Positions 2,143 through 57,080 of a stretch of 64,000 nucleotides of DNA are shown piece by piece. The stretch is from NCBI GenBank assembly GCA_947630145.1, contig CANRGL010000001.1, positions 17,289-81,288 on the forward strand. Direction: 5' to 3'. Below the pieces are notes generated by a model. It made no database searches. It was given only the letters and a program-made list of their open reading frames with translations, and was not told the DNA's origin. The number at the start of each line of letters is the position of its first letter. The first letter of the stretch is position 1. The stretch is from an uncultured Clostridia bacterium (GTDB lineage Bacteria; Bacillota; Clostridia; TANB77; CAG-465). The position numbers were made by a program, and so were the translations under genes.

Positions 2143-2143
2143 C

Positions 2144-6507: not shown

Positions 6508-6512
6508 TCATA

Positions 6513-8264: not shown

Positions 8265-8385
8265 TTTATCTCCTCCTATTTTATCTAAAATCAAAAAAAT
8301 TATATCATATTTTTTTTGGAGAAACAATTAATAAATAAAAATTTTCTCCAGTTTTTAAAAAATTTATAGACTAGTCTAAATTAGC

Positions 8386-36525: not shown

Positions 36526-36760
36526 TATTATTCCTCCTTTCTTCCTTTTTAGCAGGTTCTTTTTCATCTTTTAAATATTGCAATGTGTTTTTTTCTTTTA
36601 CATATTTTCTTAATAATATGATATTTTTTACATCAATATCTTCTGTGATAGTTTCTAAATCTTCTATTTGCAATTTTAAAATTGAACTTTCATCTCCTTT
36701 TCCAATTTTAAATAATTTCATTAGTGTAGAATATCTTGAATTATTTTCTTTTCTTGGCAC
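36518..36760 (-). CDS. small hypothetical protein
   Basis: 80-aa ORF upstream of and overlapping the polyvalent gene start. Coding status is uncertain. Confidence 0.25.
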   Translation of the reverse strand: MPRKENNSRYSTLMKLFKIGKGDESSILKLQIEDLETITEDIDVKNIILLRKYVKEKNTLQYLKDEKEPAKKEERRNNNA

Positions 36761-37095: not shown

Positions 37096-40000
37096 TTAAT
37101 TACTTTTTTTACCTCTTTTATAATTATATATAGAAAATACAATAATACTTAAAATAGATAGCATAACAATTCCACCAATAAAGAATAGCTTATTTTCATC
37201 TCCAGTTTTTGGAACTTCAATTTTAACATTTTCAAAAGAAAACTCTATTGTACTATTTTTTTCTTCAACTTTATTATCATCAATAAAAATTCCTTTGTCA
37301 TTTATTTCTACTTTTATAATTTTACTAGATAATTCATATCCTTTTGGAGCTTTTGTTTCTTTTATATAATAAACACCATATCTTAATTCTTCAAATAATG
37401 CTGTTCCATCATCCTTATTTGAATTTACTTCTTTTATCAATTTAGTACATTCAGGATCTTCGTATATAGCAAATGTAAATTTATCTTTAATAGTTTCTTT
37501 TGTTTTACTATCTACTTTTATAACCTTAATATTTTTTAATATAGGCATATCTTTCATTTCTACTTTTTGTATTTCTTTATCAGAAGTAACAACAAATGTT
37601 ATTTCTTCAGTAACTTCATAACCATAAGGAGCAGTTGTTTCTCTTAATACATAAGTTTTTCCTTCTTCTAATCCTCTAACTTTATGACTTTCTTTTGTTG
37701 ATGTCCATTTATCAACAATTTCTCCATTCTCATCAATAACTTCTAATTCTGCTCCTTCTATTTCTTCAGAAGTTATAAAATCTGTTTTTGATACTTCTAA
37801 AATTTTGTCTATCATTACTACTTTTTGTATATCATTATTATTATTTACTCTAAACTTTATTTCTGTTGCTTTTACAAATCCGTCTGGTGCAATTTTTTCT
37901 CTTAATGTGTACTCTTTATTTACTAATAATCCCTCAATTTTATGTGATTCTTTTGTTGATGTCCACTTATCAACAATTTCTCCATTTTCATCAATAACTT
38001 CTAATTCTGCTCCCTCTAATTCTTCATCTCCAGTTATTGTAGTCTTAGATATTTCTACTTCAGTTGGTTTATTTTCAACTTCTCTTGTTTCAGTATAAAC
38101 CTTAGTTGTATTATCTTTCTTTTCAAACACAACCTCTATTGGATCATCATTTAATACTACACCATCTAAAGTTTTAATTTCTTTTAATTCATATTTTCCC
38201 ATTGGAAGATTATTTATTTCTAATTTTCCATCTTTTGATAATTTATAATTTCCTACTTTTGCTCCTTTTTCATAAATTGTAGATCCATCTGCCATATCTA
38301 TTATTTTTTCTTTTGCAACAAGAGTAAACTCTATTTTACTTAAATCAGAAACATCAACAAGTGATGTATCTACATTATCTTTTAATGCAACTGATTTATC
38401 AAGTATTATAGTTCCAGTTGGTTGTTCATTACCAACTTTTATTGTAATATACGCATCGTAATCACTATCAAATTCAAGATTTTTATTACTTCTATTTATT
38501 TCAAATATTATTTCATCTTCTAATTCTAAAAATCCCTTTGGAAGTTTTATTTCATCTATCTTATATGTGCCACATTGTAATTTATCTTCTGTAACTGCAA
38601 CACCTGTTTTATCAGTTTTCCATTTATCAGAATAGAATAATCCTGTTTTACATTTTACTTTTTCCCATTCCCCATTATCATTCAATCTATAAAGACTAAA
38701 TGTAGTATCAGAAAATGTTACTACTTTTCCAGTTTTTTTATCAACTTTTATCATTTTTATATAGCTCTCAAATGGTAAATCATTTTCCACAAATTCTTTA
38801 ATTATACCATCGGAGTCTTTATCTATATTTATATAAAAAGGCTCGACTGTTTCAATTTCATCATTTGGTGTATATGTTTCTTCTACCATATATTCTCCAT
38901 AAGCAAGAGCTTTTGAAATTCCATGTCCGTCTTCTCCAGTTTTAAAAATAGAATATTCATCATCTGCATATTCATTTATATGTTCTTTTGCTTTTTCAAA
39001 GCTACCATAATAATCAACATATTTATTTAATATTGCAGTAAATTCTGCATTTGCAACTTTATTTGCAGTATTATTATCATTTGTAGAAACTTTTATAACT
39101 TCAAATTTTGCTCTTTGAACATCATTTGTAACCACATAGTTTTCTACTATTTTATCTGTATTTTGGTCTTTATATTTTAATTCATAATCGTAAATTTTTG
39201 TGTCTAATTTATATCCCTTAGGAGCAGTTGTTTCTTTAGCATAATATTTTCCCATTGGAATCCCATCCAAATAATCTTCATTTACTTTTAATTCTGCCTT
39301 TGTATCTGTATTTGTAATATTTATTTTTGCATTTCCATATTCATCAAAAGTAAATGTGGCTATTTCATCATTTGCATTAAAAAATTGCTTTGAATGACTT
39401 ACATTATAAATATTTTCTTTTGCATATAAAGTATATATAGCTCCTTTAAGAGTTGCATCTCCATGATGTGATGTTCCATCTACTCTATTTGAATTACCAG
39501 TAATAATATCTGTTTTATTTATTTTAATTTTTCCAGTAGGCTCACTATTAACTATTGCCTTACTTGCTGTTTGGTTAGGTTTTACTTCTACATTGTAACT
39601 TTTTACATCTAATAAATATCCTTTAGGAGCATTTTTTTCTTTAATGGTATATGTTCCCTTTTTTAACTTTTCAATAGTTATTTTTCCATTTTCAACAACG
39701 ACATCTTTATTATAGTTATTACCACTTACATTATAAGTAGCTCCATCAACAAGTTCCCCTGTTGTATCTAGTTTTTGTAATTCTAACTTACCAAATAATT
39801 CTATTTTTAAAGATAATTTCATTGATACAGGATCGTTATAGTGCATATTATATAATTGATTCTGAATTCCATCTCTAAATTCAAAATAAATCATAGTACC
39901 ATTGTCTTGAGTTCCTTCTTTTACTAATCCCCAAGATTTAAATGTACTATCTGAAATATTATAATTTTCTATATTAGTATTTTCATCAACAGAAATAGTT

Positions 40001-40677
40001 AATGTATTTTCTCCCTTATTATGTACAAATGTTATTCCATCTTGTGTTCTATTTATACTCTCATATTTTGAAAATACACCATTTGTGTCATTTAAAGTTT
40101 TACTTTCTCCTGCTTGAATTGTAAGTGTTGAGCTATCAAAACTAGGTCTTTTATCCATTTCATCAATTTGTCTATTTATATTATTTTTAAAATTAACATA
40201 TTCTGCTTGATATGTTGGCTCTAAAAATGTTGCATTACTTTGTCCTAATGTTTCCCATATATATTGTTGTGTATATACATAGTCTTTTTTCACACTCATC
40301 ATTTCAGGTGATGTTATTCTTTCATCAATTACATAATTTTGGTGTTTTGAATACCATCCTAAATATGCTATCTTACAAGCCTTTCTTATTGTTGGATCTG
40401 ATGGAGTATAAAATTCTCCATTATATGATTGACTAGTGGTAAATTCAACTAAAAATTCAGCACAAAAAACAGTTCTTCTTTCTCCTGTACTCAAATCAGT
40501 TAAATTTCTAATAAGTACACCATATTCTCCCATCAAACCAGTAGTCCTCATATAAGATGCAAATTGACCACCTGTCCATGTACCTGATGTAGCTAATATA
40601 GGTTGTGCAGTACTAAAAAGTATTGCAATTAGCATTAAAAATGCTGTTATTTTTTTAAATTTTATTTTTTTCATCAT
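37096..40677 (-). CDS. cell-wall-anchored surface adhesin: signal peptide, thioester-like N-terminal domain, CnaB/prealbumin-fold repeats, VPKTG sorting signal
   Basis: 1193 aa with an N-terminal signal peptide. FCAEF and TQQYIW resemble the Cys and TQxA motifs of thioester domains. EGAELEVIDENGEIVDKWTSTKESHK is repeated twice. C-terminus has VPKTGD + TM + KRGKK. Confidence 0.7.
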   Translation of the reverse strand: MMKKIKFKKITAFLMLIAILFSTAQPILATSGTWTGGQFASYMRTTGLMGEYGVLIRNLTDLSTGERRTVFCAEFLVEFTTSQSYNGEFYTPSDPTIRKACKIAYLGWYSKHQNYVIDERITSPEMMSVKKDYVYTQQYIWETLGQSNATFLEPTYQAEYVNFKNNINRQIDEMDKRPSFDSSTLTIQAGESKTLNDTNGVFSKYESINRTQDGITFVHNKGENTLTISVDENTNIENYNISDSTFKSWGLVKEGTQDNGTMIYFEFRDGIQNQLYNMHYNDPVSMKLSLKIELFGKLELQKLDTTGELVDGATYNVSGNNYNKDVVVENGKITIEKLKKGTYTIKEKNAPKGYLLDVKSYNVEVKPNQTASKAIVNSEPTGKIKINKTDIITGNSNRVDGTSHHGDATLKGAIYTLYAKENIYNVSHSKQFFNANDEIATFTFDEYGNAKINITNTDTKAELKVNEDYLDGIPMGKYYAKETTAPKGYKLDTKIYDYELKYKDQNTDKIVENYVVTNDVQRAKFEVIKVSTNDNNTANKVANAEFTAILNKYVDYYGSFEKAKEHINEYADDEYSIFKTGEDGHGISKALAYGEYMVEETYTPNDEIETVEPFYINIDKDSDGIIKEFVENDLPFESYIKMIKVDKKTGKVVTFSDTTFSLYRLNDNGEWEKVKCKTGLFYSDKWKTDKTGVAVTEDKLQCGTYKIDEIKLPKGFLELEDEIIFEINRSNKNLEFDSDYDAYITIKVGNEQPTGTIILDKSVALKDNVDTSLVDVSDLSKIEFTLVAKEKIIDMADGSTIYEKGAKVGNYKLSKDGKLEINNLPMGKYELKEIKTLDGVVLNDDPIEVVFEKKDNTTKVYTETREVENKPTEVEISKTTITGDEELEGAELEVIDENGEIVDKWTSTKESHKIEGLLVNKEYTLREKIAPDGFVKATEIKFRVNNNNDIQKVVMIDKILEVSKTDFITSEEIEGAELEVIDENGEIVDKWTSTKESHKVRGLEEGKTYVLRETTAPYGYEVTEEITFVVTSDKEIQKVEMKDMPILKNIKVIKVDSKTKETIKDKFTFAIYEDPECTKLIKEVNSNKDDGTALFEELRYGVYYIKETKAPKGYELSSKIIKVEINDKGIFIDDNKVEEKNSTIEFSFENVKIEVPKTGDENKLFFIGGIVMLSILSIIVFSIYNYKRGKKSN

Positions 40678-41565: not shown

Positions 41566-42495
41566 CTATCTTAAATCTCTTTCTTGTTTTAATCGTTCTC
41601 TTTTGTTATGTTCTTGGACACACAAAATTATAAAGTCCTCCACATTTCCTGTTTCTTTAATCTTTGTTGGTATATACTTATCAATTCTTTCGTTATGTAT
41701 TTTTATAAATTCCTTTTGATTTGGCTTTTCCTTATCAAGTAATTCTTCTATCTTTTCTTCTGATATAGTTCCTTCTTGTTGCATTTTCTTTAATGTTATG
41801 GCTTGACTCAAACTAGGGGAAACTTCATCATAATCTAATTTATTTAGAATGACATATTGATAATCTTCTTCTAAATATGATAGTTCAACAGCAGGTCTAA
41901 ATGCTATTCTTTTACTATCGACTTCATCTAATAATTCAGGTATTAGTTTAGTAAGTCTAATGTATCTTCTTATATTTTCCCTACTTTCTCCAACTTCTTC
42001 GCCTAATCTTTCTCTTGATGTTAACTTCGGCACCACTGGTGCATAAGTTTCATTTTCTTCAAATTCTACATTTTTTCCTTGATGTTTCATAGCTTCTAAC
42101 TTCATTTTATAGGCATAAGCCTTTTCACTTGGTAAAATTTCCTCTCTTTGAATATTACTATCTACCATTAAAATTGTTGCCTCATCATCAGATAAATTTT
42201 TAACAATACATCTTATCTTTTTTATTCCTGCTAATTCACAAGCTCTCTTTCTTCTATGACCTGAAATCATTTCATAAGTACCATCATTTTTTGGTCTAAC
42301 AATAACAGGAATTATTACACCATATTCCTTAACACTATTTACCATTTCTCTCATTTTATCATCATCATTTACTTTAAATGGATGATTAGGGAATTCTGAT
42401 ATTCTATTTATTTCAATTTCCTCTACCTTTTCAGCATTATTGAAATCTCTTTCTTCTTGTGTTGTAAAAAAATCATCTAACTTTGGAAGTTTCAT
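41566..42495 (-). CDS. ParB/Spo0J-like nuclease-partition protein
   Basis: ParB box GHRRKRA. The ORF extends to 42516 and overlaps the parA end. Confidence 0.7.
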   Translation of the reverse strand: MKLPKLDDFFTTQEERDFNNAEKVEEIEINRISEFPNHPFKVNDDDKMREMVNSVKEYGVIIPVIVRPKNDGTYEMISGHRRKRACELAGIKKIRCIVKNLSDDEATILMVDSNIQREEILPSEKAYAYKMKLEAMKHQGKNVEFEENETYAPVVPKLTSRERLGEEVGESRENIRRYIRLTKLIPELLDEVDSKRIAFRPAVELSYLEEDYQYVILNKLDYDEVSPSLSQAITLKKMQQEGTISEEKIEELLDKEKPNQKEFIKIHNERIDKYIPTKIKETGNVEDFIILCVQEHNKRERLKQERDLR

Positions 42496-43291
42496 TTCTA
42501 GATTTTGCTCTTTCATTTTCTACTACCTCCTTTGCTAGATTTTTATAAGCATTCGCAACAGGATTATTTTTATCAAATTCAAATATACTTTTACCAGTCA
42601 AACTTGATTTTGCAGTATTAACAGCTTTAGGAATTTCTGTATTATAAATATTTATATGTTGACCATAATTATTTTCTAATGTATCTCTTACTTGCTTTGA
42701 TAAATTTGTTCTTTTATCAACTAAAGTAAGTAAAACTCCACCTATTTTTAAATTAGGGTTTATTTGTTTATGAATTTTTGATACTGTTTGTAATAAATGT
42801 CCCATTCCTTTTGCAGCTAAATATTCTCCTTGAACAGGGATTATTATATTATCACTACATGCTAAGGCATTTATTGTTATCATACCTAAACTTGGCATAC
42901 AATCAATTAAAATATAATCATATTTATCTATAATGCTACTAATAGAATTTTTTAATGTATATTCTCTACTCATAGCATTAACTAAATACATTTCTAATGC
43001 AGATAAATCTAAATTTGATGGAATTAAGTCTATTCCTTCGGAGTGATGAAGAATAGTATTCTTAATATTTGTTTCTTTATCTTGAATTGCATTGTTCATT
43101 AAAGTTCCAATTGTATTTTGTAGTTCATCTTGATTATAATATCCCATACAAGTTGTTAAATCTCCTTGTGGATCTGCATCAATAAGTAAAACTTTTTTGC
43201 CTTGTTTTGCAAGTGCAACACCTAAAGAAAAAGTAGTTGTTGTTTTACCAACTCCACCCTTTTGATTAGCAATAGCAATAATCTTACTCAT
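42473..43291 (-). CDS. ParA/Soj-family ATPase
   Basis: Deviant Walker A KGGVGKTT, 272 aa. Confidence 0.85.
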   Translation of the reverse strand: MSKIIAIANQKGGVGKTTTTFSLGVALAKQGKKVLLIDADPQGDLTTCMGYYNQDELQNTIGTLMNNAIQDKETNIKNTILHHSEGIDLIPSNLDLSALEMYLVNAMSREYTLKNSISSIIDKYDYILIDCMPSLGMITINALACSDNIIIPVQGEYLAAKGMGHLLQTVSKIHKQINPNLKIGGVLLTLVDKRTNLSKQVRDTLENNYGQHINIYNTEIPKAVNTAKSSLTGKSIFEFDKNNPVANAYKNLAKEVVENERAKSRNETSKVR

Positions 43292-44132: not shown

Positions 44133-44417
44133 CTAACTGATAAAATATTCTACTGCATTTTCTGGAAAAAATTCTTTAAACTCTGAATAAAGTTGTCCTG
44201 CAAGTGTTTTATTGTGTGTCATAATTATAGTAGGTTTTTGCACCTGTTCAATAACATTTGCTATTGTAAATGTCTTTCCACTACCTGTAACTCCAAGTAG
44301 TGTTTGATCCTTATACCCTTTATTTATTCCATCTACAAGCTTTGAAATTGCTTGTGGTTGATCTCCTGTTGGTTTAAATTTGGAATGTAATTTAAATAAT
44401 TTTTTTTCTTCTTTCAT
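44133..44417 (-). pseudogene. uvrB: uvrB 5' fragment (first ~95 codons) truncated by insertion junction
   Basis: [23 protein letters not shown]...[17 protein letters not shown]...[17 protein letters not shown] is the conserved UvrB N-terminus. The conserved YYDYYQPE continuation is replaced by IS-stop at 44133-44141. Confidence 0.8.
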
Positions 44418-44639
44418 TTTTTCCTTTCTTTGTGACCTAATTAAATTTTTAAAAGATAACAATCAACCAGACTTTCGTACCCAAAATACAAATTTTTATT
44501 GGTTAATAGTGAATTTTTTGATGAGTACAAATACAGGTCACAAATTTTATTTTGTATAACTAAATAATAAGTGTACAAAACATTATGTTTATAAATAATT
44601 AATTTTATCGTTTTTTCTAGATAATCTAATCTTTTTTTA

Positions 44640-44990
44640 TTAATTGCATATTTTTTTAAAATATAATATTTTAAGAATTTTGTTGCCCATTTTCTTAACT
44701 TAATACCATTTTTAGATTTTACACGATAACCAACAGATATAATCATATCCAAATTATAATAATTAGTTAGCTTATCAGAAAATTCAGAATTTCCGAATTT
44801 AGTTAAAGTTTCACTTTCCAATAGTTCCCCATCTTTATAAATATTTTTTCATTTATTGTAGATTTATCTTTTTGGAATAATTATGCCATTTGTTCTCGTG
44901 TTATACCTTCTATTTCATCTTTAATATTAGCATCTAATTTTACATTTTGATTTTCAAATATAATAATATCATTTTTTCGTATTTATTTAT
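44640..44990 (-). pseudogene. degenerate RhuM-family paralog (in-frame stop and frameshift)
   Basis: Translation in two frames parallels the intact RhuM copy (DIIIFENQNV...; LDMIISVGYRVKSKNGIKLRKWATKF). A TAA interrupts it after REQMA. Confidence 0.5.
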
Positions 44991-46005
44991 TTTCATTTAA
45001 ATATCTCTTATACATTTCATCCATACTTGAAATATATTGTTCGTCTTGTTTTATTCTATACTTTTCATATTCTGCATTAGCTTTATTAATTGCTTGTTTA
45101 TGAGATATTTTTCCAGAATCTTTTAGGAGTTCTTTTTTTCTAAATTTTAATAAATTATCCGTTTCATTTATCCAGTCTCTCATAGTCATAACTTGATTTT
45201 CTTCTGCCATTGTTTCTGCATAATCTAAAAATAATGTAGTTAAATTGTTTAGTTTCTTTAGTTCTTCTTCTCTTAAATAATTTTTTGCAATAGTTACATC
45301 ATATTTATATATCATTCCATCTGGAGCTTCTTTCCAAGTTGTAAGTCCCATATTAGTTTTACTTGCATCTACTCTTTCAAAAATAAGTTCAGCAGCAGTG
45401 TGTCCTGTTATTGCATAATGTAACTTATTTTGTACGATTTTAAAAAATGTATATGCTTCTTCAGAATTTTTATCATAATCAATTGATGTACTTATAAAGA
45501 TATCTGTTATTTTTTGATATGCCATTCTTTCACTTGTACGAATTACTTTTATTCTTTCTAATAATTCATCAAAATATTTTTGATTTACTTTTTCACCTTT
45601 TAGAAATCTTTCATCATCTAAAGCGAATCCTTTTGTCATATATGAATTTAATATTTTTGTTGCCCATATTCTAAATTCTGTTGCTTTTTTAGAATTAACT
45701 CTATATCCAACAGATATTATAACATCTAAGTTATAAAATTCTGTATTATATTTCTTCCCATCATTTGCAGTATGTGCAAATTTTGCACATACTTGATTTT
45801 TATCTAATTCACCTTCATTAAAAATATTTTTTAAATGTTTTGTTATCACACTTCTATCTATATCAAATATTTCAGACATAGTCTTTTGAGATACCCATAA
45901 AGTTTCGCCGTTTATCAATAACTCAATATTAGTATCACCATTATCTTTTTTATAAAACACTATATCACTATTAGAAGCAATCATTTTATTATCCATAAAT
46001 ATCAC
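44983..46005 (-). CDS. RhuM-family protein
   Basis: 340 aa with the DVIISVGYRVNSKKATEFRIWATKIL core typical of the RhuM/DinD-like family. Confidence 0.65.
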   Translation of the reverse strand: MIFMDNKMIASNSDIVFYKKDNGDTNIELLINGETLWVSQKTMSEIFDIDRSVITKHLKNIFNEGELDKNQVCAKFAHTANDGKKYNTEFYNLDVIISVGYRVNSKKATEFRIWATKILNSYMTKGFALDDERFLKGEKVNQKYFDELLERIKVIRTSERMAYQKITDIFISTSIDYDKNSEEAYTFFKIVQNKLHYAITGHTAAELIFERVDASKTNMGLTTWKEAPDGMIYKYDVTIAKNYLREEELKKLNNLTTLFLDYAETMAEENQVMTMRDWINETDNLLKFRKKELLKDSGKISHKQAINKANAEYEKYRIKQDEQYISSMDEMYKRYLNENK

Positions 46006-46273: not shown

Positions 46274-48049
46274 TTATTTTAATTTCCCATAATACATATC
46301 ACTAAATATCCCATTTTTTTCAATTAATTCATCATATTTTCCTTGTTCTTCTATCTTTCCTTTATTTAAAACAATTATTTTATCACAATTTTTTAAAGTT
46401 GTTAATCTATGTGCTATGGAAATTATTGTTGTATTATTTTCCTTTTGTAATTTTTCTATTTCTGTTTGAATATATTTTTCAGAAGTATTATCTAATGCAG
46501 ACGTTGCCTCATCTAAAATTAATATTTTTGGTTTTCTTAAAAATATTCTAGCTATTGCAATTCTTTGCCTTTGACCACCAGATAAGTTATTTCCACCTTC
46601 TGAAATATTAGAATTAAATTTATCTGGTAAACTATTTATATAATCGTAAATATACGCTTTTTTAGCAGCTTCTTCAACTTCAGTTTTGCTAACTTCTCTA
46701 TCTATACCATAACATATATTTTCATAAATAGTTCCTGCAATTAAGAAAGGACTTTGTGGAACTAATGCTATTAATTTTGATATATCTTTTCTACTTAAAG
46801 ATTCTATTTTATTAGAATCTATTATTATATCACCATATCCTTTTTCTAATTTACAAATTGCCTTTATTAATGATGACTTACCACATCCACTTGGTCCAGC
46901 AACTCCTAAAAACATTCCTTTTTCTATTGATAAATTAAAATTATCTAATATTAATTTATCTTTATTCTCATTATAATAAAACATTAAATTTTCTATTTTA
47001 ATTATTGGTTTTGTTTTTATTTCTTCATTTTTTCCTGATAATTCTTTATATGAAAAATCATTTGGTATTTCTACCATTTTAAAGAAATCTGTAGCTAGTA
47101 CTGTACATTCTGATAATTCATCAAATATTCTATGTAATTCCTCTAATGGTTTTATTAATTGATTAAAACATAAATATGCTGTTAAAACACTACCAACTGA
47201 AATAATGTTTTTAGTTGCTAAATATGTTGAAATTCCTATTATTAATACTGTAAAAAATGCTTGGTTTATAAACTTCAAACAATCGTATAATGCCATAGCT
47301 TTATGATGTTTCATTTCTTTTTTTCTTAAAAATTCTGATTTATTATCAAATCTGTTTATCTCAAAGTCTACACTATCACTAATCCTTATTACCTCTATAC
47401 CATTTATTAATTCTACAATAGTACCATCCATTTGAGATTTACTTTCTAGTAATTCTACTCTAATTCCTTTTTGACTTTTTATTTGTTTAAATACAATAAA
47501 TATTCCTATTGGTATTACTAACATCATAGGAAGTGCTAAAATAAATGGCAATGTTATGAATATTGTAATAATTGCTGCTATACTATTAAAAATTGCTGGA
47601 GCAAAATCCATAAATAACAATTTTTCTAATTTTACTGTGCCTTCTAAACATCTATTCATTCTTCCATGTATATTTCCTGTCATATTTTCTCTAAAATATG
47701 ATAAAGGTGCCATAAGAAGAGATTTTATAACCATTCCTCTTGCACGTTTTTCTGTTCTTGTTGCAGTATCTTCTACCATAACTCTTCTAATTATTTTTAT
47801 AATTTCATTTACAACATTTACAATTAAGATTAAAATTAGAAAAGGTATTACCTTTAAAAACGCGATTTTACTTTCAGTTAAAATATCATCTGTTAACCAA
47901 CCAATTGCTTTTGGAGTTATTTGAGTTAACATTGCTGAAATAATCATAATTATTACAATTATTGCAAAAGATATTTTTTGTTTTTTAGTAAGTATAGAAT
48001 ATAATTTTTTTAATACAGATTTAATAGACTCATCTTTTACTTTTTTCAT
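46274..48049 (-). CDS. ABC transporter, fused permease/ATP-binding exporter
   Basis: N-terminal 6-TM domain. Walker A GPSGCGKSS, signature LSGGQRQRIAIAR and Walker B ILILDEATSALD. Confidence 0.85.
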   Translation of the reverse strand: MKKVKDESIKSVLKKLYSILTKKQKISFAIIVIIMIISAMLTQITPKAIGWLTDDILTESKIAFLKVIPFLILILIVNVVNEIIKIIRRVMVEDTATRTEKRARGMVIKSLLMAPLSYFRENMTGNIHGRMNRCLEGTVKLEKLLFMDFAPAIFNSIAAIITIFITLPFILALPMMLVIPIGIFIVFKQIKSQKGIRVELLESKSQMDGTIVELINGIEVIRISDSVDFEINRFDNKSEFLRKKEMKHHKAMALYDCLKFINQAFFTVLIIGISTYLATKNIISVGSVLTAYLCFNQLIKPLEELHRIFDELSECTVLATDFFKMVEIPNDFSYKELSGKNEEIKTKPIIKIENLMFYYNENKDKLILDNFNLSIEKGMFLGVAGPSGCGKSSLIKAICKLEKGYGDIIIDSNKIESLSRKDISKLIALVPQSPFLIAGTIYENICYGIDREVSKTEVEEAAKKAYIYDYINSLPDKFNSNISEGGNNLSGGQRQRIAIARIFLRKPKILILDEATSALDNTSEKYIQTEIEKLQKENNTTIISIAHRLTTLKNCDKIIVLNKGKIEEQGKYDELIEKNGIFSDMYYGKLK

Positions 48050-48169
48050 ATCATTCTCCTCTTTAAATATTTTTTATATAAAATTAAACAAACTTATTTA
48101 CATATAAAGCCCATATTAATAAATTCTACATTTAATAATATGGGCAAATTTAATTGTATTTTTATTAAA

Positions 48170-51100
48170 TTATGATTTTTTATTTAATAGTTTTATTGTT
48201 GTAAATCCTGCTACACTAAGTCCTGCTACTACAAGCATTATAAGTAAATCTAGACTTAATGTTCCACCAGTTACTGGTAATGTTTTTGGTTCATTATACA
48301 CTGTTGTTTCAAATATTTCACCATTCTCACTTAATGTAAATGATTTTTCTTTATTATTTACAATATATTTGTCTGGTGCTGATATTTCTCTATAATAGTA
48401 TTTACCTACTGTTAATGGTTTACTTTCAGCAATACCTTGAGCATTTGTAACTATTGTGTCTATTACTTGTTTATTCTCATCAAGTATTTCAAAAGTTACT
48501 CCTTCAATTGGTGCTTTAGTTTGTTTATCTAGTTTTATAATTCTTAATGTTCCAGTTGATTTTTTATTTTCTACTGTTTTTAAAACTTGAGTATTTTTTG
48601 AAGTTACTTCAAATTCATATTCATTAGTATCCATTACATATTCTTTTGGTGCACTTACTTCTTTGTAATAATATGTTCCTATTAATAATTCTTTAGAAGT
48701 TGCTTTACCATTTGAATCAGTAGTTATTGTATCTACTACTTTATGATCCTTATCTAATATATCAAATTTTACTCCTTTAATTGGTTCATTTGAATCATCT
48801 ACTTTTGTTATTTCGATAAATCCTCTAACGCGTTCATTTTTTACTATCTTTTTAATCATTTGGTTAACATTTTTAACTTCAAATTTATATATATCAGAAT
48901 CCATTATATATCCATCTGGTGCTGATATTTCTTGATAAGTATATACGCCTTTTACTAAAGGTACATTTGATACAGCAATACCATTTTTGTCTGTTGTTAT
49001 TGTATCAACTACTTTTCCTTCTGTATCTTTTATTTCAAATACAACACCTTCAACTGGATTTTTAGCATCATCTATTTTTGTGATTTGAATTGTTCCAGTT
49101 ATTTTTTTATTTGTTACTGTTTGTTTTATAACTTCATTATTTGTATTTATTTCAAATTTAACTTTTTTATCGCTAAATTCATAATATGCTGGTGCTTCTA
49201 TTTCTTGATAATAATATGTTCCTTTTAGTAAATCTTTTACTTCAGCCTTACCTTCTTTATTTGTTGTAACTGTTTTTATAACTTTTTTATTTGAATCTAA
49301 AATATTAAATTTTACTCCTTCTATTGGTGCCTTTGTATCTTCATCTACTTTTAATATTTCTAAACTTCCTTTTATTCTATAGTTTATTACTTCTCTTTTT
49401 ACTACTTCATTGTCTTCATTTATTTTAAATTCAAAAATTTCTTCATCTTTTATATATCCATCTGGTACTTCTACTTCTTGATAATAATATGTTCCTTTTG
49501 CTAATGCTTTAGTTGTTGCATATCCTGTTTTATCTGTTACTAAAGTTTCAATTACTGTTTTCTTATCACTTGCTAATATATTAAATTTTACTCCTTTAAT
49601 ACCAACTCTTGTATCATCTAGTTTTGTTATTTCTAATTTTCCTTTTATTTTTTTGTTTATTACTTCTCTTTTTACTACTTCATTATCATCATTTATTTTA
49701 AATTCAAAGATTCCTTCATCTTTTATATATCCATCTGGCACTTCTACTTCTTGATAGTAGTATGTTCCTTTTTCTAATTTCTTTGTTGTTGCATATCCTC
49801 TACTGTCTGTTACTAATGTTTCTATTACTGTCTTTTTATCACTTGCTAGTATATTAAATTTTACTCCTTCTATTCCTACTCTACTATCATCTAGTTTTGT
49901 TATCTCTAGTCTTCCTCTTATCTTTTTGTTTGTTACTGTTGCTTTTGCTATCTTATTTTCATCTGTTATCTTAAATTCTTTCATACTATTATCTACTATA
50001 TATCCATTTGGTGCACTTATCTCTTTGTAATAGTATGTTCCATTTGCCATATTGTCTATCTTTAATACTGCTTTTCCGTCTTTTCCTGTTGTTATTTCAC
50101 TTATCTTTTCTTTCTTTGAATTATATACTTCAAATTTTACTCCTTCTATTGGTTCTTTTGTTTCTTCATCTATCTTTAATAGCTCTAAACCACCTATTAT
50201 TTTCTCATTTACTGCTTTTATTGTTACTGTCTTTGATATATCTACTTGTACTGTCTCTTTCTTATAGTTCATTATATATCCTTCTGGCGCACTTACTTCT
50301 TCTACTGTATATTTACCTACTGGTATTCCTGTTATTGTTATCTTTCCTTCTTTATTTGTTTTCTTATCTGCTACTACTTCTCCTGCTTCATTTGTTACTT
50401 TAAATTCTGCTCCTTCTACACTTGCTCCATTTTGGTCTACTTTTATTATCTCTATATTTCCTTCTCTTTTTTCCCATGTAAATGTTGTATTTGCACTTAT
50501 TGTTTTTTGCTCAAAATCTAAAAATACATAGTTTTGCAATGTGTTTCCACTTGCTCCATATATTACACCAACTTTCTCATTTGCTACTGCTTTTATATTT
50601 AATGTTACTTTTGTTGGTGCTGCATTTTTATCTACTAATACGTATACATCTTCACCTTTATTAAATTTATCTCTTATTCTATTATCTTTATCTACTACTA
50701 ATGTTCCTTTTGGTGCATTACTTACACTTGCTTCATATACTGTATAGTTATAGTCTACTACATTTACTTTAAATGGTCCTATCTTGTTCATCTCTACATA
50801 ACTATTATAGTCTACATTTCCTCCACTTACACTTATTGATGGATTATATGTATTCTTTGCTAGTATGTTTGCTGCTACTTTCTTTGCACTATTTACTACT
50901 TCTGTATATCCTCCTGCTGCATTTGGTTGAATATTATTTAAATTAAATGTTTTTCCTTTTGTATATGATGTTCCACTTACTGTTTGCCATACTGCCATTT
51001 GTGTTCCCAAGTATGCTGCTTCTACATTTATTGCTCCTAACTGAGCTACTGTTTTATTTGGATATCCATTACTTATTACTGATACTAATTTATTTGATCT

Positions 51101-51373
51101 TACTGTTTTTATATATGATAATGATGACATCTCTTTTGGTGCCCTTACTCCATAATCTATACAATATGCTTGATTTCCTCCTATTGTAGTTATTGCATAT
51201 TCATGGTATGCATTATTTAGATTATCATACATTGCAGCCTTGTATGGCGCATGTGAATATGCTAGATTTTCCCTTCCTGCGTTTACAGAAAATGGATTTA
51301 AATCTGCTATCATTACAAAAAGTACTGCAAATATTACCAATATTTTGCTTTTTATATTTTTCATCTTTTTCAT
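48170..51373 (-). CDS. LPVTG-anchored TQXA thioester-domain adhesin with CnaB/SpaA-type repeat shaft (copy 1)
   Basis: Signal peptide. AYCIDYG Cys motif and LGTQMAVWQ (TQxA). Many prealbumin-fold repeats (GKYTVEEVSAPEGYI). C-terminal LPVTGG + TM + KKS. Confidence 0.8.
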   Translation of the reverse strand: MKKMKNIKSKILVIFAVLFVMIADLNPFSVNAGRENLAYSHAPYKAAMYDNLNNAYHEYAITTIGGNQAYCIDYGVRAPKEMSSLSYIKTVRSNKLVSVISNGYPNKTVAQLGAINVEAAYLGTQMAVWQTVSGTSYTKGKTFNLNNIQPNAAGGYTEVVNSAKKVAANILAKNTYNPSISVSGGNVDYNSYVEMNKIGPFKVNVVDYNYTVYEASVSNAPKGTLVVDKDNRIRDKFNKGEDVYVLVDKNAAPTKVTLNIKAVANEKVGVIYGASGNTLQNYVFLDFEQKTISANTTFTWEKREGNIEIIKVDQNGASVEGAEFKVTNEAGEVVADKKTNKEGKITITGIPVGKYTVEEVSAPEGYIMNYKKETVQVDISKTVTIKAVNEKIIGGLELLKIDEETKEPIEGVKFEVYNSKKEKISEITTGKDGKAVLKIDNMANGTYYYKEISAPNGYIVDNSMKEFKITDENKIAKATVTNKKIRGRLEITKLDDSRVGIEGVKFNILASDKKTVIETLVTDSRGYATTKKLEKGTYYYQEVEVPDGYIKDEGIFEFKINDDNEVVKREVINKKIKGKLEITKLDDTRVGIKGVKFNILASDKKTVIETLVTDKTGYATTKALAKGTYYYQEVEVPDGYIKDEEIFEFKINEDNEVVKREVINYRIKGSLEILKVDEDTKAPIEGVKFNILDSNKKVIKTVTTNKEGKAEVKDLLKGTYYYQEIEAPAYYEFSDKKVKFEINTNNEVIKQTVTNKKITGTIQITKIDDAKNPVEGVVFEIKDTEGKVVDTITTDKNGIAVSNVPLVKGVYTYQEISAPDGYIMDSDIYKFEVKNVNQMIKKIVKNERVRGFIEITKVDDSNEPIKGVKFDILDKDHKVVDTITTDSNGKATSKELLIGTYYYKEVSAPKEYVMDTNEYEFEVTSKNTQVLKTVENKKSTGTLRIIKLDKQTKAPIEGVTFEILDENKQVIDTIVTNAQGIAESKPLTVGKYYYREISAPDKYIVNNKEKSFTLSENGEIFETTVYNEPKTLPVTGGTLSLDLLIMLVVAGLSVAGFTTIKLLNKKS

Positions 51374-51491
51374 CTTTTTTTCCTCCTATATTTTTATATA
51401 TATTCTTTTTTTATTGCTTTTTTTACTCTACATTTATATTATAGCACATTTAATTAACTTTGTCAACATAATATTTAAAATTATGTAAAAT

Positions 51492-51520
51492 AAACGACCG
51501 TATTTATATTACGATCGTTT
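51492..51520 (-). terminator. intergenic hairpin terminator between the two adhesin paralogs
   Basis: AAACGACCGTA-tttatat-TACGATCGTTT (one G-U in minus sense) followed by a U-rich tract. Confidence 0.45.
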
Positions 51521-51533
51521 ACCTACATTAAAA

Positions 51534-54500
51534 TTATGATCTTTTAGCTTTAATAAGTTTTACTGTTGTAAATCCTGCTACACTAAGTCCTGCTACTACA
51601 AGCATTATAAGTAAATCTAGGCTTAATGTTCCACCAGTTACTGGTAATGTTTTTGGATCATTATATACTGTTGTTTCAAATATCTCACCATTCTCACTTA
51701 ATGTAAATGATTTTTCTTTATTATTTACAATATATTTGTCTGGTGCTGATATTTCTCTATAATAGTATTTACCTACTGTTAATGGTTTACTTTCAGCAAT
51801 ACCTTGAGCATTTGTAACTATTGTGTCTATTACTTGTTTATTCTCATCAAGTATTTCAAAAGTTACTCCTTCAATTGGTGCTTTAGTTTGTTTATCTAGT
51901 TTTATAATTCTTAATGTTCCAGTTGATTTTTTATTTTCTACTGTTTTTAAAACTTGAGTATTTTTTGAAGTTACTTCAAATTCATATTCATTAGTATCCA
52001 TTACATATTCTTTTGGTGCACTTACTTCTTTGTAATAATATGTTCCTATTAATAATTCTTTAGAAGTTGCTTTACCATTTGAATCAGTAGTTATTGTATC
52101 TACTACTTTATGATCCTTATCTAATATATCAAATTTTACTCCTTTAATTGGTTCATTTGAATCATCTACTTTTGTTATTTCGATAAATCCTCTAACGCGT
52201 TCATTTTTTACTATCTTTTTAATCATTTGGTTAACATTTTTAACTTCAAATTTATATATATCAGAATCCATTATATATCCATCTGGTGCTGATATTTCTT
52301 GATAAGTATATACGCCTTTTACTAAAGGTACATTTGATACAGCAATACCATTTTTGTCTGTTGTTATTGTATCAACTACTTTTCCTTCTGTATCTTTTAT
52401 TTCAAATACAACACCTTCAACTGGATTTTTAGCATCATCTATTTTTGTGATTTGAATTGTTCCAGTTATTTTTTTATTTGTTACTGTTTGTTTTATAACT
52501 TCATTATTTGTATTTATTTCAAATTTAACTTTTTTATCGCTAAATTCATAATATGCTGGTGCTTCTATTTCTTGATAATAATATGTTCCTTTTAGTAAAT
52601 CTTTTACTTCAGCCTTACCTTCTTTATTTGTTGTAACTGTTTTTATAACTTTTTTATTTGAATCTAAAATATTAAATTTTACTCCTTCTATTGGTGCCTT
52701 TGTATCTTCATCTACTTTTAATATTTCTAAACTTCCTTTTATTCTATAGTTTATTACTTCTCTTTTTACTACTTCATTGTCTTCATTTATTTTAAATTCA
52801 AAAATTTCTTCATCTTTTATATATCCATCTGGTACTTCTACTTCTTGATAATAATATGTTCCTTTTGCTAATGCTTTAGTTGTTGCATATCCTGTTTTAT
52901 CTGTTACTAAAGTTTCAATTACTGTTTTCTTATCACTTGCTAATATATTAAATTTTACTCCTTTAATACCAACTCTTGTATCATCTAGTTTTGTTATTTC
53001 TAATTTTCCTTTTATTTTTTTGTTTATTACTTCTCTTTTTACTACTTCATTATCATCATTTATTTTAAATTCAAAGATTCCTTCATCTTTTATATATCCA
53101 TCTGGCACTTCTACTTCTTGATAGTAGTATGTTCCTTTTTCTAATTTCTTTGTTGTTGCATATCCTCTACTGTCTGTTACTAATGTTTCTATTACTGTCT
53201 TTTTATCACTTGCTAGTATATTAAATTTTACTCCTTCTATTCCTACTCTACTATCATCTAGTTTTGTTATCTCTAGTCTTCCTCTTATCTTTTTGTTTGT
53301 TACTGTTTGTTTTATAACTTCATTATTTGTATTTATTTCAAATTTAACTTTTTTATCGCTAAATTTATAATATGCTGGTGCTTCTATTTCTTGATAATAA
53401 TATGTTCCTTTTAGTAAATCTTTTACTTCAGCTTTACCTTCTTTATTTGTTGTAACTGTTTTTATAACTTTTTTATTTGAATCTAAAATATTAAATTTTA
53501 CTCCTTCTATTGGTGCCTTTGTATCTTCATCTACTTTTAATATTTCTAAACTTCCTTTTATTCTATAGTTTATTACTTCTCTTTTTACTACTTCATTGTC
53601 TTCATTTATTTTAAATTCAAAAATTTCTTCATCTTTTATATATCCATCTGGTACTTCTACTTCTTGATAATAATATGTTCCTTTTGCTAATGCTTTAGTT
53701 GTTGCATATCCTGTTTTATCTGTTACTAAAGTTTCAATTACTGTTTTCTTATCACTTGCTAATATATTAAATTTTACTCCTTTAATACCAACTCTTGTAT
53801 CATCTAGTTTTGTTATTTCTAATTTTCCTTTTATTTTTTTGTTTATTACTTCTCTTTTTACTACTTCATTATCATCATTTATTTTAAATTCAAAGATTCC
53901 TTCATCTTTTATATATCCATCTGGCACTTCTACTTCTTGATAGTAGTATGTTCCTTTTTCTAATTTCTTTGTTGTTGCATATCCTCTACTGTCTGTTACT
54001 AATGTTTCTATTACTGTCTTTTTATCACTTGCTAGTATATTAAATTTTACTCCTTCTATTCCTACTCTACTATCATCTAGTTTTGTTATCTCTAGTCTTC
54101 CTCTTATCTTTTTGTTTGTTACTGTTGCTTTTGCTATCTTATTTTCATCTGTTATCTTAAATTCTTTCATACTATTATCTACTATATATCCATTTGGTGC
54201 ACTTATCTCTTTGTAATAGTATGTTCCATTTGCCATATTGTCTATCTTTAATACTGCTTTTCCGTCTTTTCCTGTTGTTATTTCACTTATCTTTTCTTTC
54301 TTTGAATTATATACTTCAAATTTTACTCCTTCTATTGGTTCTTTTGTTTCTTCATCTATCTTTAATAGCTCTAAACCACCTATTATTTTCTCATTTACTG
54401 CTTTTATTGTTACTGTCTTTGATATATCTACTTGTACTGTCTCTTTCTTATAGTTCATTATATATCCTTCTGGCGCACTTACTTCTTCTACTGTATATTT

Positions 54501-55559
54501 ACCTACTGGTATTCCTGTTATTGTTATCTTTCCTTCTTTATTTGTTTTCTTATCTGCTACTACTTCTCCTGCTTCATTTGTTACTTTAAATTCTGCTCCT
54601 TCTACACTTGCTCCATTTTGGTCTACTTTTATTATCTCTATATTTCCTTCTCTTTTTTCCCATGTAAATGTTGTATTTGCACTTATTGTTTTTTGCTCAA
54701 AATCTAAAAATACATAGTTTTGCAATGTGTTTCCACTTGCTCCATATATTACACCAACTTTCTCATTTGCTACTGCTTTTATATTTAATGTTACTTTTGT
54801 TGGTGCTGCATTTTTATCTACTAATACGTATACATCTTCACCTTTATTAAATTTATCTCTTATTCTATTATCTTTATCTACTACTAATGTTCCTTTTGGT
54901 GCATTACTTACACTTGCTTCATATACTGTATAGTTATAGTCTACTACATTTACTTTAAATGGTCCTATCTTGTTCATCTCTACATAACTATTATAGTCTA
55001 CATTTCCTCCACTTACACTTATTGATGGATTATATGTATTCTTTGCTAGTATGTTTGCTGCTACTTTCTTTGCACTATTTACTACTTCTGTATATCCTCC
55101 TGCTGCATTTGGTTGAATATTATTTAAATTAAATGTTTTTCCTTTTGTATATGATGTTCCACTTACTGTTTGCCATACTGCCATTTGTGTTCCCAAGTAT
55201 GCTGCTTCTACATTTATTGCTCCTAACTGAGCTACTGTTTTATTTGGATATCCATTACTTATTACTGATACTAATTTATTTGATCTTACTGTTTTTATAT
55301 ATGATAATGACGCACTTTCTTTTGGCGCTCTTATACCATAATCTATACAATATGCTTGATTTCCACCTATTGTGGCTATTGCATATTCATAGTATGCATT
55401 ATGTAGATTATCATACATTGCTGCCTTATATGGCGCATGTGAATATGCTAGATTTTCCCTTCCTGCGTTTACAGAAAATGGATTTAGATCTGCTATCATT
55501 GCAAAAAATACCGCAAGTATTACCAATATTTTGCTTTTTATATTCTTCATCTTTTTCAT
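51534..55559 (-). CDS. LPVTG-anchored TQXA thioester-domain adhesin (copy 2, with extra 274-aa internal repeat block)
   Basis: 1341 aa. Identical to copy 1 over most of its length. The N-terminal domain differs at about 10 positions. An internal 822-bp tandem duplication is present. Confidence 0.8.
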   Translation of the reverse strand: MKKMKNIKSKILVILAVFFAMIADLNPFSVNAGRENLAYSHAPYKAAMYDNLHNAYYEYAIATIGGNQAYCIDYGIRAPKESASLSYIKTVRSNKLVSVISNGYPNKTVAQLGAINVEAAYLGTQMAVWQTVSGTSYTKGKTFNLNNIQPNAAGGYTEVVNSAKKVAANILAKNTYNPSISVSGGNVDYNSYVEMNKIGPFKVNVVDYNYTVYEASVSNAPKGTLVVDKDNRIRDKFNKGEDVYVLVDKNAAPTKVTLNIKAVANEKVGVIYGASGNTLQNYVFLDFEQKTISANTTFTWEKREGNIEIIKVDQNGASVEGAEFKVTNEAGEVVADKKTNKEGKITITGIPVGKYTVEEVSAPEGYIMNYKKETVQVDISKTVTIKAVNEKIIGGLELLKIDEETKEPIEGVKFEVYNSKKEKISEITTGKDGKAVLKIDNMANGTYYYKEISAPNGYIVDNSMKEFKITDENKIAKATVTNKKIRGRLEITKLDDSRVGIEGVKFNILASDKKTVIETLVTDSRGYATTKKLEKGTYYYQEVEVPDGYIKDEGIFEFKINDDNEVVKREVINKKIKGKLEITKLDDTRVGIKGVKFNILASDKKTVIETLVTDKTGYATTKALAKGTYYYQEVEVPDGYIKDEEIFEFKINEDNEVVKREVINYRIKGSLEILKVDEDTKAPIEGVKFNILDSNKKVIKTVTTNKEGKAEVKDLLKGTYYYQEIEAPAYYKFSDKKVKFEINTNNEVIKQTVTNKKIRGRLEITKLDDSRVGIEGVKFNILASDKKTVIETLVTDSRGYATTKKLEKGTYYYQEVEVPDGYIKDEGIFEFKINDDNEVVKREVINKKIKGKLEITKLDDTRVGIKGVKFNILASDKKTVIETLVTDKTGYATTKALAKGTYYYQEVEVPDGYIKDEEIFEFKINEDNEVVKREVINYRIKGSLEILKVDEDTKAPIEGVKFNILDSNKKVIKTVTTNKEGKAEVKDLLKGTYYYQEIEAPAYYEFSDKKVKFEINTNNEVIKQTVTNKKITGTIQITKIDDAKNPVEGVVFEIKDTEGKVVDTITTDKNGIAVSNVPLVKGVYTYQEISAPDGYIMDSDIYKFEVKNVNQMIKKIVKNERVRGFIEITKVDDSNEPIKGVKFDILDKDHKVVDTITTDSNGKATSKELLIGTYYYKEVSAPKEYVMDTNEYEFEVTSKNTQVLKTVENKKSTGTLRIIKLDKQTKAPIEGVTFEILDENKQVIDTIVTNAQGIAESKPLTVGKYYYREISAPDKYIVNNKEKSFTLSENGEIFETTVYNDPKTLPVTGGTLSLDLLIMLVVAGLSVAGFTTVKLIKAKRS

Positions 55560-55685
55560 CTTTTTTTCCTCCTATATTTCTATATATATTCTTCTTTTAT
55601 TACTTTTTTTACTCTACATTTATATTATAGCACATTTAAATTGTAATCGTCAACATAATTTTGAAACATTTTTGAAATTTTTACA

Positions 55686-56291
55686 CTATATTAATTCACC
55701 TTTTAAAACTACTCTTGCACTAGCATTATAATTACATGTAATTAAAGTGATCTCTCTTTTATCAGAATTGTTTATAACTTCTATACTAGTTGGAGAAACT
55801 GTTTGTTTTGAAGTAATTTTATACGTATATGTAGTAGTCTTAGTTGTAACCTTTACTTCATCTCCAATATTTACTTTATTTAAGTTTCTAAATATTTCAG
55901 TATATATATTATTGTGAGCTGCTACACTAAAGTTTCCTATTTGTCCTGGCATAGCTGCTCCTTTAAACATACCTATATAATTTTTTAAAGTTTGATTATC
56001 TGTACCTTCTTTTACAACACCTTTTATTCCCTGAGATGGTATCTGAATAACGGCTATTGCATTTCCTGTAACTTGAATATTTTCATCTGCTGAAGAAGAT
56101 GTAGCTTCACCTGTTGCTGAGCCAACATCAGTACCTGGAGTACCATTAAACTCAACATTAAGAAGTGCCTCAATCTCCTTTTCTTGTTTTTTATCTCTTA
56201 TCATATTCTTAATAAATATTGCTGTAGCTGAAACAACTACAATAAAAATTACTAAAATTACAATTTCTTTTACTTTTACTTTAATTTTCAT
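55686..56291 (-). CDS. sortase (TLITC active site)
   Basis: 201 aa with an N-terminal TM segment, His in AAHNNIY and TLITCN catalytic Cys. Directly upstream of the LPVTG adhesins. Confidence 0.7.
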   Translation of the reverse strand: MKIKVKVKEIVILVIFIVVVSATAIFIKNMIRDKKQEKEIEALLNVEFNGTPGTDVGSATGEATSSSADENIQVTGNAIAVIQIPSQGIKGVVKEGTDNQTLKNYIGMFKGAAMPGQIGNFSVAAHNNIYTEIFRNLNKVNIGDEVKVTTKTTTYTYKITSKQTVSPTSIEVINNSDKREITLITCNYNASARVVLKGELI

Positions 56292-56429: not shown

Positions 56430-56458
56430 TTGACATTTAAACTTTAAAATTATATAAT
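56430..56458 (+). promoter_or_regulatory. consensus sigma-A promoter TTGACA-17-TATAAT
   Basis: A perfect -35 and -10 with a 17-bp spacer, read directly. It sits upstream of the plus-strand membrane protein gene. Confidence 0.5.
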
Positions 56459-56525
56459 CAATATAACTAATACGAAAATGATGTTTTTTGACATTTTATT
56501 TTTTGATTATATAGGAGTTGAAAAA

Positions 56526-57080
56526 ATGCTTATTGTTAATTTTGTAATATCAATTGTAATAATTATAATAATATTCATGTTAATATCATTTATAATAAAA
56601 TCACTAATACATGTTTTTACGCAATATGAATATCCTTCATATTATCTGTTCTTACCAACTTTTTTAATTCTTGGTATATGGAGCTTAAATTTTATATTAT
56701 GGTATTTTAGCATAACTTACATTTTAAAAATAGATATAATTAAAGTAATCATAGGAATAATAATTAAAGAAGGAATTATTGAAAGAAATATTATATTTAT
56801 TACACTAATATTTACATTTATTTCGCTATTAATGCAAGCATTTGCAATCATGACAATAAATATAGATTATAAAAAAATAACAGGAAACACTAGATTCTTT
56901 TTTAAAAAAATTCTTAAAATAAGAACAAAAAGCAACAAAACATTAGTTATTAAAGATGATCCTGAAAAATTAGGATTTGTATCATCATTACTAATAAGTA
57001 TACTATCCTTCATAATAATAATCTTCTTTATTCTAATTTCATTACTTATAGGTTTCCTAATTAGTAAAAAATTAACCTAG
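56526..57080 (+). CDS. hypothetical polytopic membrane protein
   Basis: Several TM helices. TAGGAG RBS 8 nt before ATG at 56526. The ORF track start at 56478 is probably upstream of the RBS. Confidence 0.35.
   Translation: MLIVNFVISIVIIIIIFMLISFIIKSLIHVFTQYEYPSYYLFLPTFLILGIWSLNFILWYFSITYILKIDIIKVIIGIIIKEGIIERNIIFITLIFTFISLLMQAFAIMTINIDYKKITGNTRFFFKKILKIRTKSNKTLVIKDDPEKLGFVSSLLISILSFIIIIFFILISLLIGFLISKKLT

Follow-up and report, generated by a model that had tools for sequence, protein, structure and literature searches.

A tandem pair of predicted thioester-domain adhesin genes beside a sortase gene, probably homogenised by gene conversion, in an uncultured gut Clostridium-like bacterium

Here, we propose that a stretch of 64,000 nucleotides (nt) from an uncultured Clostridia bacterium (contig CANRGL010000001.1; the whole stretch is the window below) carries a conserved chromosomal cassette of a sortase gene followed by two tandem genes for predicted thioester-domain adhesins, adhesin A and adhesin B. 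We consider it likely that this cassette has been homogenised by recurrent intrachromosomal conversion between the two adhesin genes, and that one of them has also undergone a duplication of three stalk domains. We place the host among human-gut, Clostridium-like bacteria, as a relative of 'Clostridium sp. CAG:465'.

The two adhesin genes both lie on the minus strand. The sortase-distal gene, g1 (48170-51373), encodes 1067 amino acids (aa) and the sortase-proximal gene, g2 (51534-55559), encodes 1341 aa. Each translated open reading frame (ORF) matches the Pfam thioester domain (TED; PF08341, 44.3 bits for g1 and 44.1 for g2 against a cut-off of 22), and the SpaA model (PF17802) finds 8 stretches in g1 and 11 in g2 (E=1.8e-150 and 3.1e-205). 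An earlier note on this DNA had described a tandem pair, and the two ORFs lie exactly where it placed them. Homology between the genes spans, by gapped alignment, a region from about 82-106 nt 5' of each ATG to the stop codon. Within it, an exact-match scan gave two identical runs, one of 1,877 nt from 49248 on (offset 4186) and one of 1,623 nt from 48318 on (offset 3367). The identical antisense ORFs at 50008 and 54194 that the earlier note had used to detect the repeat, also at offset 4186, fall inside the longer run.

Differences between g1 and g2 are confined to the two ends of the repeated unit. The diverged 5' end of the g1 unit (51125-51479, minus strand), comprising the promoter, the untranslated region and codons 1-83, differs by about 8% from g2 55311-55666. 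The 26 mismatches at this end all fall within 51454-51125, with 4 before the ATG and 22 in codons 1-83, the latter giving 9 aa changes in residues 1-83 (3 of them in the signal peptide). The last approximately 130 nt of the coding sequence hold 6 substitutions and a 3-nt indel, so that none of the 28 coding substitutions falls outside nt 1-249 and the last approximately 130 nt. Between these ends, the 2,807 nt of g1 from 51124 to 48318 align to g2 with no mismatch at all. We read this interval (48318-51124, minus strand) as a putative gene-conversion tract; it matches g2 51685-53307 plus 54127-55310 perfectly, with an extra block lying between the two g2 segments. As the 5' end diverges by about 8%, zero differences over 2.8 kb cannot be put down to chance. 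The mismatch map agrees with the earlier claim that differences cluster in the N-terminal thioester region and at the extreme C-terminus, the proposed figure of about 10 substitutions in 90 residues becoming 9 in the first 83. The perfect identity described earlier also holds, over a core of 2.8 kb rather than about 3 kb and one that is split in g2 by the insertion.

In support of an old origin for the pair, a scan of metagenome contigs with an alignment of the head domain gave 12 loci from human-gut metagenomes, 8 of which keep the cassette, some on contigs of 93-140 kb. The gene order in this sister species begins with gatB and DUF4358 and, further along, continues with recG, a membrane ORF on the opposite strand, the sortase, adhesin A and adhesin B, and its RecG and GatB are 84% and about 92% identical to the window proteins. 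Sister adhesin A has 1067 aa and 8 SpaA domains, and sister adhesin B has 795 aa and 5. Segment identity matrices of these genes separate a homogenised part from a diverged one. Over nt 1-249, A and B are 100% identical within a strain, against 83.5-98.8% between strains; over nt 250-1700, the values are 99.6-100% and 94-99%. Over the last 690 nt, A and B are only about 80% identical, as compared to 92.6-99.9% for A with A and 94.3-99.6% for B with B. The ends of the identical tract vary by strain (21-104 nt 5' of the ATG, and nt 1581-1715 downstream), and the 5' edge of the repeat unit, at about -100 and just 5' of the -35 box, is common to both species. What is homogenised is the promoter together with the adhesive head and the stalk domains next to it, the wall-proximal stalk and anchor being the part that diverges.

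These comparisons point to an ancestral tandem duplication whose 5' part has been repeatedly homogenised by gene conversion, that is, to concerted evolution, and they indicate an old duplication, shared between species, as opposed to a recent event. The gene conversion suggested in the earlier note is thereby backed by comparative data, namely the identity matrices and the strain-varying tract ends. In the window, g1 and g2 are both A-type throughout, with 80% identity to A versus 75% to B and an A-type membrane anchor, and a search of the 3' end of g1 for B-type remnants found none. This A-type character along both genes means either that the distal gene has been almost wholly overwritten or, less likely, that B was lost and A duplicated again. 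We favour a history in which an earlier layer of conversion would already have turned both old paralogs into A type over their full length, and a later tract, starting at codon 84 and ending some 40 codons short of the stop, appears to have erased the differences up to the last approximately 130 nt.

A separate event would account for the difference in length between the two genes. Within g2 lie two tandem blocks of 819 bp (54126-53308 and 53307-52489, minus strand), each encoding three SpaA domains (D3-D4-D5), where g1 has a single D3-D4-D5 block (49122-49940). The block corresponds to 273 aa, or three domains of 91 aa. At an offset of 819, identity within g2 extends over 831 nt with 2 mismatches, including an exact run of 693 nt, and Tandem Repeats Finder reports a period of 273 with 5.9 copies in the g2 stalk. 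The in-gene duplication had previously been sized at 822 bp, which we revise to 819 bp; likewise, the extra block does hold three domains, though of 273 rather than 274 aa, the additional residue coming from the 3-nt indel in the C-terminal tail. The junction falls in a 12-nt microhomology, AACAGTAACAAA (encoding TVTN), that is common to the D2/D3 and D5/D6 boundaries and that points to slippage or unequal exchange. On this basis, an event of either kind at the microhomology would have taken the g2 stalk from 8 domains to 11. Two substitutions, at 53433 (synonymous) and 53366 (E732K), are private to the upstream block, and the downstream block is identical to the sole block of g1. D3 and D4 are 87% identical in DNA, an older duplicate, the other domains being about 60-65% identical. 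As the earlier note had it, the three-domain expansion alters stalk length, with 8 domains in g1 and 11 in g2. Among sister strains the count is 8 + 5 domains in 8/8 assemblies, with one further A gene (L011) of 7 domains that is possibly an assembly collapse; no further strain of the window's species was found.

What might the two proteins do? Both share a layout of signal peptide, predicted Class II TED, 8 or 11 SpaA/CnaB domains and LPVTG anchor. They start with the signal peptide MKKMKNIKSKILVIF...VNA/GRE and end in a canonical sorting signal consisting of TLPVTGG, 20 hydrophobic residues and KLLNKKS. Their identification as TQXA or thioester-domain adhesins, already made in the earlier note, is borne out by the Pfam TED match, by TIGR03934 (TQXA_dom, 31.3 bits against a cut-off of 30.4) and by a match of the family profile to BaTIE (PDB 6FWV; E=2.1e-44) that covers the head and first stalk domains. 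In TEDs of Class II, a thioester bond joins a Cys in strand C to a Gln about 195 residues downstream (Cys71 and Gln266 in BaTIE); this Gln differs from that of the TQxxΦW motif, and the Cys and Gln that form the bond are the only universally conserved TED residues (Miller, Banfield & Schwarz-Linek 2018, PMC6194298).

In g2, the predicted thioester domain occupies residues ~34-300 (54660-55460, minus strand). Its Cys71 (in AYCIDYG) pairs with BaTIE Cys71 in the alignment and is invariant in 9/9 aligned relatives. Its candidate bond-forming Gln280 (in TLQNYVF) pairs with BaTIE Gln266 in the profile alignment, the single-sequence alignment being off by one residue, and is kept in 8/8 relatives that cover the position. 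The TQxxΦW helper motif is also present as TQMAVW (T124-Q-M-A-V-W129) and is invariant in the alignment of relatives. By homology, the Gln of the TQXA motif that gave the family its name in the earlier note is probably not the bond former here. The Class II type is defined by a beta-sandwich of about 75 residues between the helical subdomain and the Gln-bearing strand, in a slipknot fold, and the sequence alignment to 6FWV runs across this insert. The stalk domains are predicted to be isopeptide cross-linked, since all 11 in g2 have the Lys, Glu and Asn triad positions (the Lys of xIxK, the Glu of Y-x-E-x-x-x-P and the Asn of a C-terminal V-x-N).

By homology to characterised proteins of this type, the adhesin would be exported via its Sec signal peptide, cut at LPVTG by the sortase and linked to peptidoglycan. 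A rigid, isopeptide-linked stalk of CnaB type would then hold the Class II TED away from the cell, where the Cys71-Gln280 thioester is expected to react covalently with a nucleophile on the target.

Does the pair then present two different tips? The mature proteins differ in this region by six substitutions that flank Cys71 (N53H, H57Y, T62A, V76I, M82S and S83A), and by homology strands A and B, as well as the "specificity loop" that has been proposed for TEDs (PMC6194298), should fall within residues 34-70. Over codons 34-84, the ratio of nonsynonymous to synonymous divergence (dN/dS) between g1 and g2 is 0.18 with a dS of 0.34, the overall 5' dN/dS being 0.18-0.23, and between sister strains dN/dS does not exceed 0.42. 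Positive selection on the tip was considered and rejected on account of this low dN/dS; the 5' end is simply higher in dS. The earlier suggestion that the copies vary tip specificity is not upheld either, as the 5' differences are mostly synonymous (dN/dS 0.18) and sister paralogs carry identical heads. Among sister strains the first approximately 600 nt are the most variable part (mean 5-8%, up to 15%), against 1-3% for the stalk. The 5' end thus shows deeper or older allelic divergence, not selection for two tips.

It is in the stalk that the paralogs differ consistently: the gene nearer the sortase has three more domains in both species (11/8 here and 8/5 in the sister species). One option is that the pair is a selected two-tier display, in which a single thioester warhead is carried on stalks differing by exactly three CnaB domains; we hold this to be rather improbable. 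It would be no less doubtful that, after conversion had made both genes 8-domain A type, the 819-bp duplication restored the offset. We would give similarly long odds to the general form of the idea, in which conversion matches the heads while selection keeps the heights different. The three-domain offset in both species could be a coincidence.

Each adhesin gene has a promoter and a terminator-like hairpin of its own, so that the repeat unit begins with the promoter and ends at the stop codon, and g1 and g2 are predicted to be independent transcription units. The g2 promoter (55624-55653, minus strand) has TTGACG, an 18-nt spacer and a TG-extended TATAAT, matching the consensus at 11/12 positions, and is located inside the duplicated unit. 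The g1 promoter (51438-51466, minus strand) has TTGACA, a 17-nt spacer and a TG-extended TATAAT and is the best of the region (12/12). The hairpin after g2 (51483-51528, minus strand; -19.1 kcal/mol, z=-6.3, with a U-rich stretch after it) is unique sequence outside the repeat, and the one after g1 (48109-48145, minus strand; -19.6 kcal/mol, z=-3.7) differs from it in sequence.

Directly upstream of the pair is the sortase gene (55686-56291, minus strand; 201 aa, Pfam Sortase E=9.7e-31), whose translation shows TLITC and AAHNN motifs and is 80-82% identical to the sister-species sortase at the equivalent position. Its product passes the generic NCBIfam sortase model, the sole model above its cut-off; none of the class-specific NCBIfam models was passed, the best being class E (109.9 bits against a cut-off of 160). 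We presume it to be a housekeeping enzyme for LPVTG substrates. Between recG and the sortase, a very hydrophobic ORF on the plus strand (56478-57080) encodes a 200-aa, multi-pass membrane protein that has no match in Pfam or NCBIfam. It has a perfect promoter (TTGACA-17-TATAAT, 56430-56458) divergent from the sortase and is kept in place in all sister-species loci (L008-L019) at 53% aa identity, and it may belong to the adhesin module.

How else might the locus be explained? A recent de novo duplication, in which B was lost, A recently doubled and the diverged ends were imported from another allele, is in our judgement unlikely, although it is the alternative to which we give the most weight. 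It would explain why both genes are A-type to the very 3' end, anchor included, with no B remnant in g1, and also why the terminator part of the intergenic spacer cannot be aligned between the window and the sister species. However, the repeat unit has its 5' edge at the sister-species position, and in the sister species ongoing conversion can be seen directly, with tract ends that are strain-specific. Moreover, the ends have a dS of 0.17-0.34 and the core a dS of 0, which calls for at least two events of different age. An assembly artefact, whether one gene falsely duplicated or expanded or the alleles of two strains chained together, is very improbable. The locus does defeat short-read assemblers: five same-strain short-read contigs (SPAdes, L003 and L007; Logan, L004-L006) are 100% identical to the window, but all end at repeat edges (at 55432, 48251 and 55610), so that the earlier note was right to warn of assembly collapse. 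Two related contigs also seem collapsed, namely L017 (1-1911)/P0004, a 521-aa head-D1-(D2/D8') chimera ending in a B-type anchor, and L011 (1-4331), whose A gene has 7 domains, one fewer than usual; either may be a natural recombination deletion of stalk domains or a short-read collapse. Against an artefact, the contig ends, placed on the variant map, fall exactly 55 nt (SPAdes) or 30 nt (Logan; k-1 for k=31) into the shared stretch after a distinguishing single-nucleotide polymorphism (SNP). Such breaks one k-mer past the SNPs mark a true branch of the de Bruijn graph, and therefore both 5' and both 3' variants exist in those independently assembled samples. In addition, the junction is coherent, in that the g2 terminator, which is unique, leads on to the g1 promoter; the same tandem layout recurs in eight sister-species metagenomes on long contigs; and the two private SNPs in one of the three block copies would be hard to obtain from a collapsed graph.

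Least credible of all, in our estimate, is that the pair is cargo of a conjugative element and acts as mating-pair adhesins in the manner of TIEpLS20. This was the first reading taken from context, and it was dropped on the evidence of sister synteny and the truncated uvrB. The window does hold a conjugative element, with a relaxase (25382-26773), VirD4 (22646-24442), VirB4 (17344-19686), a CHAP hydrolase (14374-15483) and ParAB (41566-43291). A Class II TED adhesin is needed for efficient pLS20 conjugation (PMC8092201), and distant homologues of the adhesins occur on Bacillus plasmids. However, in sister chromosomes the cassette stands beside recG, and housekeeping-type genes follow it in 5/8 loci. 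The uvrB remnant in the window (44136-44399, minus strand) retains codons 1-88 only, which share 86% identity with the complete UvrB (652 aa) of sister locus L008, and the remainder is absent from the window; the cut after codon 88 thus places the start of the element at about 44.1 kb, approximately 4 kb from g1. The element also has a sortase and an SpaA adhesin of its own with a different motif, VPKTG, and a megablast of the 8.3-kb adhesin locus against 72,556 plasmids gave no match.

Several points nonetheless weigh against the homogenised cassette that we propose. Outside the window, no contig was found that crosses from g2 into g1: a 39-mer from the junction had no exact match in Joint Genome Institute (JGI) metagenome contigs. 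The exact g1 and g2 products had no match in public assemblies. The perfect identity of the core is read from the assembly alone and could be inflated by polishing. Similarly, the 100% identity between A and B in the sister species is an upper bound, because a loop resolved in a short-read assembly makes the copies identical, though such a loop does not account for the strain-specific co-variation of A and B. In this lineage, the loss of B with re-duplication of A is formally inseparable from whole-gene conversion. On the side of function, the adjacent sortase passes no class-specific NCBIfam model and the predicted role is based on 25-30% identity to characterised TEDs. An AlphaFold2 model of the N-terminal 305 aa (from a 7-sequence alignment) is poor, with a mean predicted local distance difference test (pLDDT) score of 53.9, the TED core below 40 and residues 179-300 confidently beta-rich, so that the Class II fold is predicted from sequence.

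The region downstream of the pair is a variable island, as judged from flank content that differs between sister strains: in 5/8 loci (L012, L014, L015, L018 and L019) TetR, ABC, FtsX and ZIP genes lie downstream of B, and in L008 and L010 RhuM-like genes and then uvrB come after B, with uvrB full-length in L008. In the window, the interval between g1 and the truncated uvrB (44441-46005 and 46274-48049, minus strand) holds an MsbA-like ABC exporter, a complete gene of the RhuM family and a fragment of RhuM. The conjugative element itself, apparently at least 43 kb long and extending left to about position 1000 or beyond, seems to have uvrB as its insertion site, and the window showed no integrase. 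Its own surface protein (37096-40677, minus strand; 1193 aa) has 8 SpaA domains and the VPKTG sorting motif, and its VFCAEF and TQQYIW look TED-like (Pfam TED E=0.02, below the cut-off). Together with the element's own 259-aa sortase (16572-17351, minus strand), this protein may form a mating-pair adhesin system distinct from the chromosomal LPVTG pair.

Further features of the element were observed, all on the minus strand. A gene for a WapI-like immunity protein (15557-16018) adjoins the CHAP cell-wall hydrolase, and a giant protein of 2405 aa (29350-36567) combines SNF2/ResIII helicase and LPD16 domains, a combination typical of the large polyvalent proteins of conjugative elements. At the far end, a cluster (1006-8327) of a class-V aminotransferase (cysteine desulfurase-like), an 1169-aa protein with no Pfam match, DUF4007, and a PAPS-reductase plus 4Fe-4S protein resembles a Dnd-like DNA phosphorothioation module. 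After it, a further gene encodes a protein of 924 aa that bears a sigma-70 region 4 motif.

The adhesin family to which the pair belongs is small. An exhaustive search of the head domain against 1.84 billion cluster representatives found only 160 proteins with E<=1e-3, of which 10 reached E<=1e-30. The sister-species B gene came closest, at 71% identity, the next being at 44%. The closest plasmid-borne relatives were Bacillus genes with 23-30% identity, some of them on Bacillus subtilis plasmids. We regard the family as a small branch, restricted to the gut, of the Class II TED adhesins. The locus is a clean natural example of how gene conversion and microhomology-mediated domain duplication shape a covalent adhesin locus in an uncultured gut Firmicute. 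Furthermore, since short-read assemblies break or collapse it, the copy number and length of such adhesins will be under-reported in gut metagenome catalogues. The underlying principles (TIE adhesins, periscope-like length change and conversion in tandem paralogs) are already known and belong to the ordinary evolution of surface proteins.

The closest characterised counterparts are the Class II TED 'TIE' proteins (Miller, Banfield & Schwarz-Linek 2018, PMC6194298), namely BaTIE (Bacillus anthracis BA5258, 6FWV), SaTIE and EfmTIE86, whose layout of signal peptide, Class II TED, CnaB-type stalk and sortase anchor is also the one predicted for g1 and g2. The window proteins, known here from sequence alone, differ from these in that the head is only about 25-30% identical and the stalk has 8 or 11 domains as opposed to 3-5, and in forming a homogenised tandem pair with an adjacent sortase. 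TIEpLS20, the Class II TED adhesin of plasmid pLS20 that is needed for conjugation in liquid (PMC8092201), likewise has a Class II TED on a Cna-type stalk, and the genes of pLS20-like Bacillus plasmids are 27-30% identical. TIEpLS20 is, however, plasmid-borne, lacks LPXTG and is sortase-independent, whereas g1 and g2 are chromosomal, lie outside the neighbouring element and are, by sequence, LPVTG- and sortase-dependent.

As with Periscope proteins, whose stalks vary in length (e.g. Rib/Alpha C, SasG and Aap; Whelan et al. 2021; review PMC9704523), g1 and g2 place an N-terminal functional domain on a tandem rod, the length of which would be changed by recombination of near-identical repeats (819 bp, 99.8%). 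Unlike in those proteins, most of the g1 and g2 stalk repeats share only 60-87% DNA identity, just one expansion event is seen, and the eight sister strains are all 8/5. Finally, concerted evolution of tandem paralogs has been described for the Staphylococcus aureus lpl cluster (Tsuru & Kobayashi 2008, PMC2568036), where adjacent paralogs also swap segments by conversion, the evolving unit is not the ORF and the result is a sharp-edged mosaic. The lpl genes belong to another protein family, and the conversion proposed here differs from theirs in favouring the promoter, the head and the first stalk domains.

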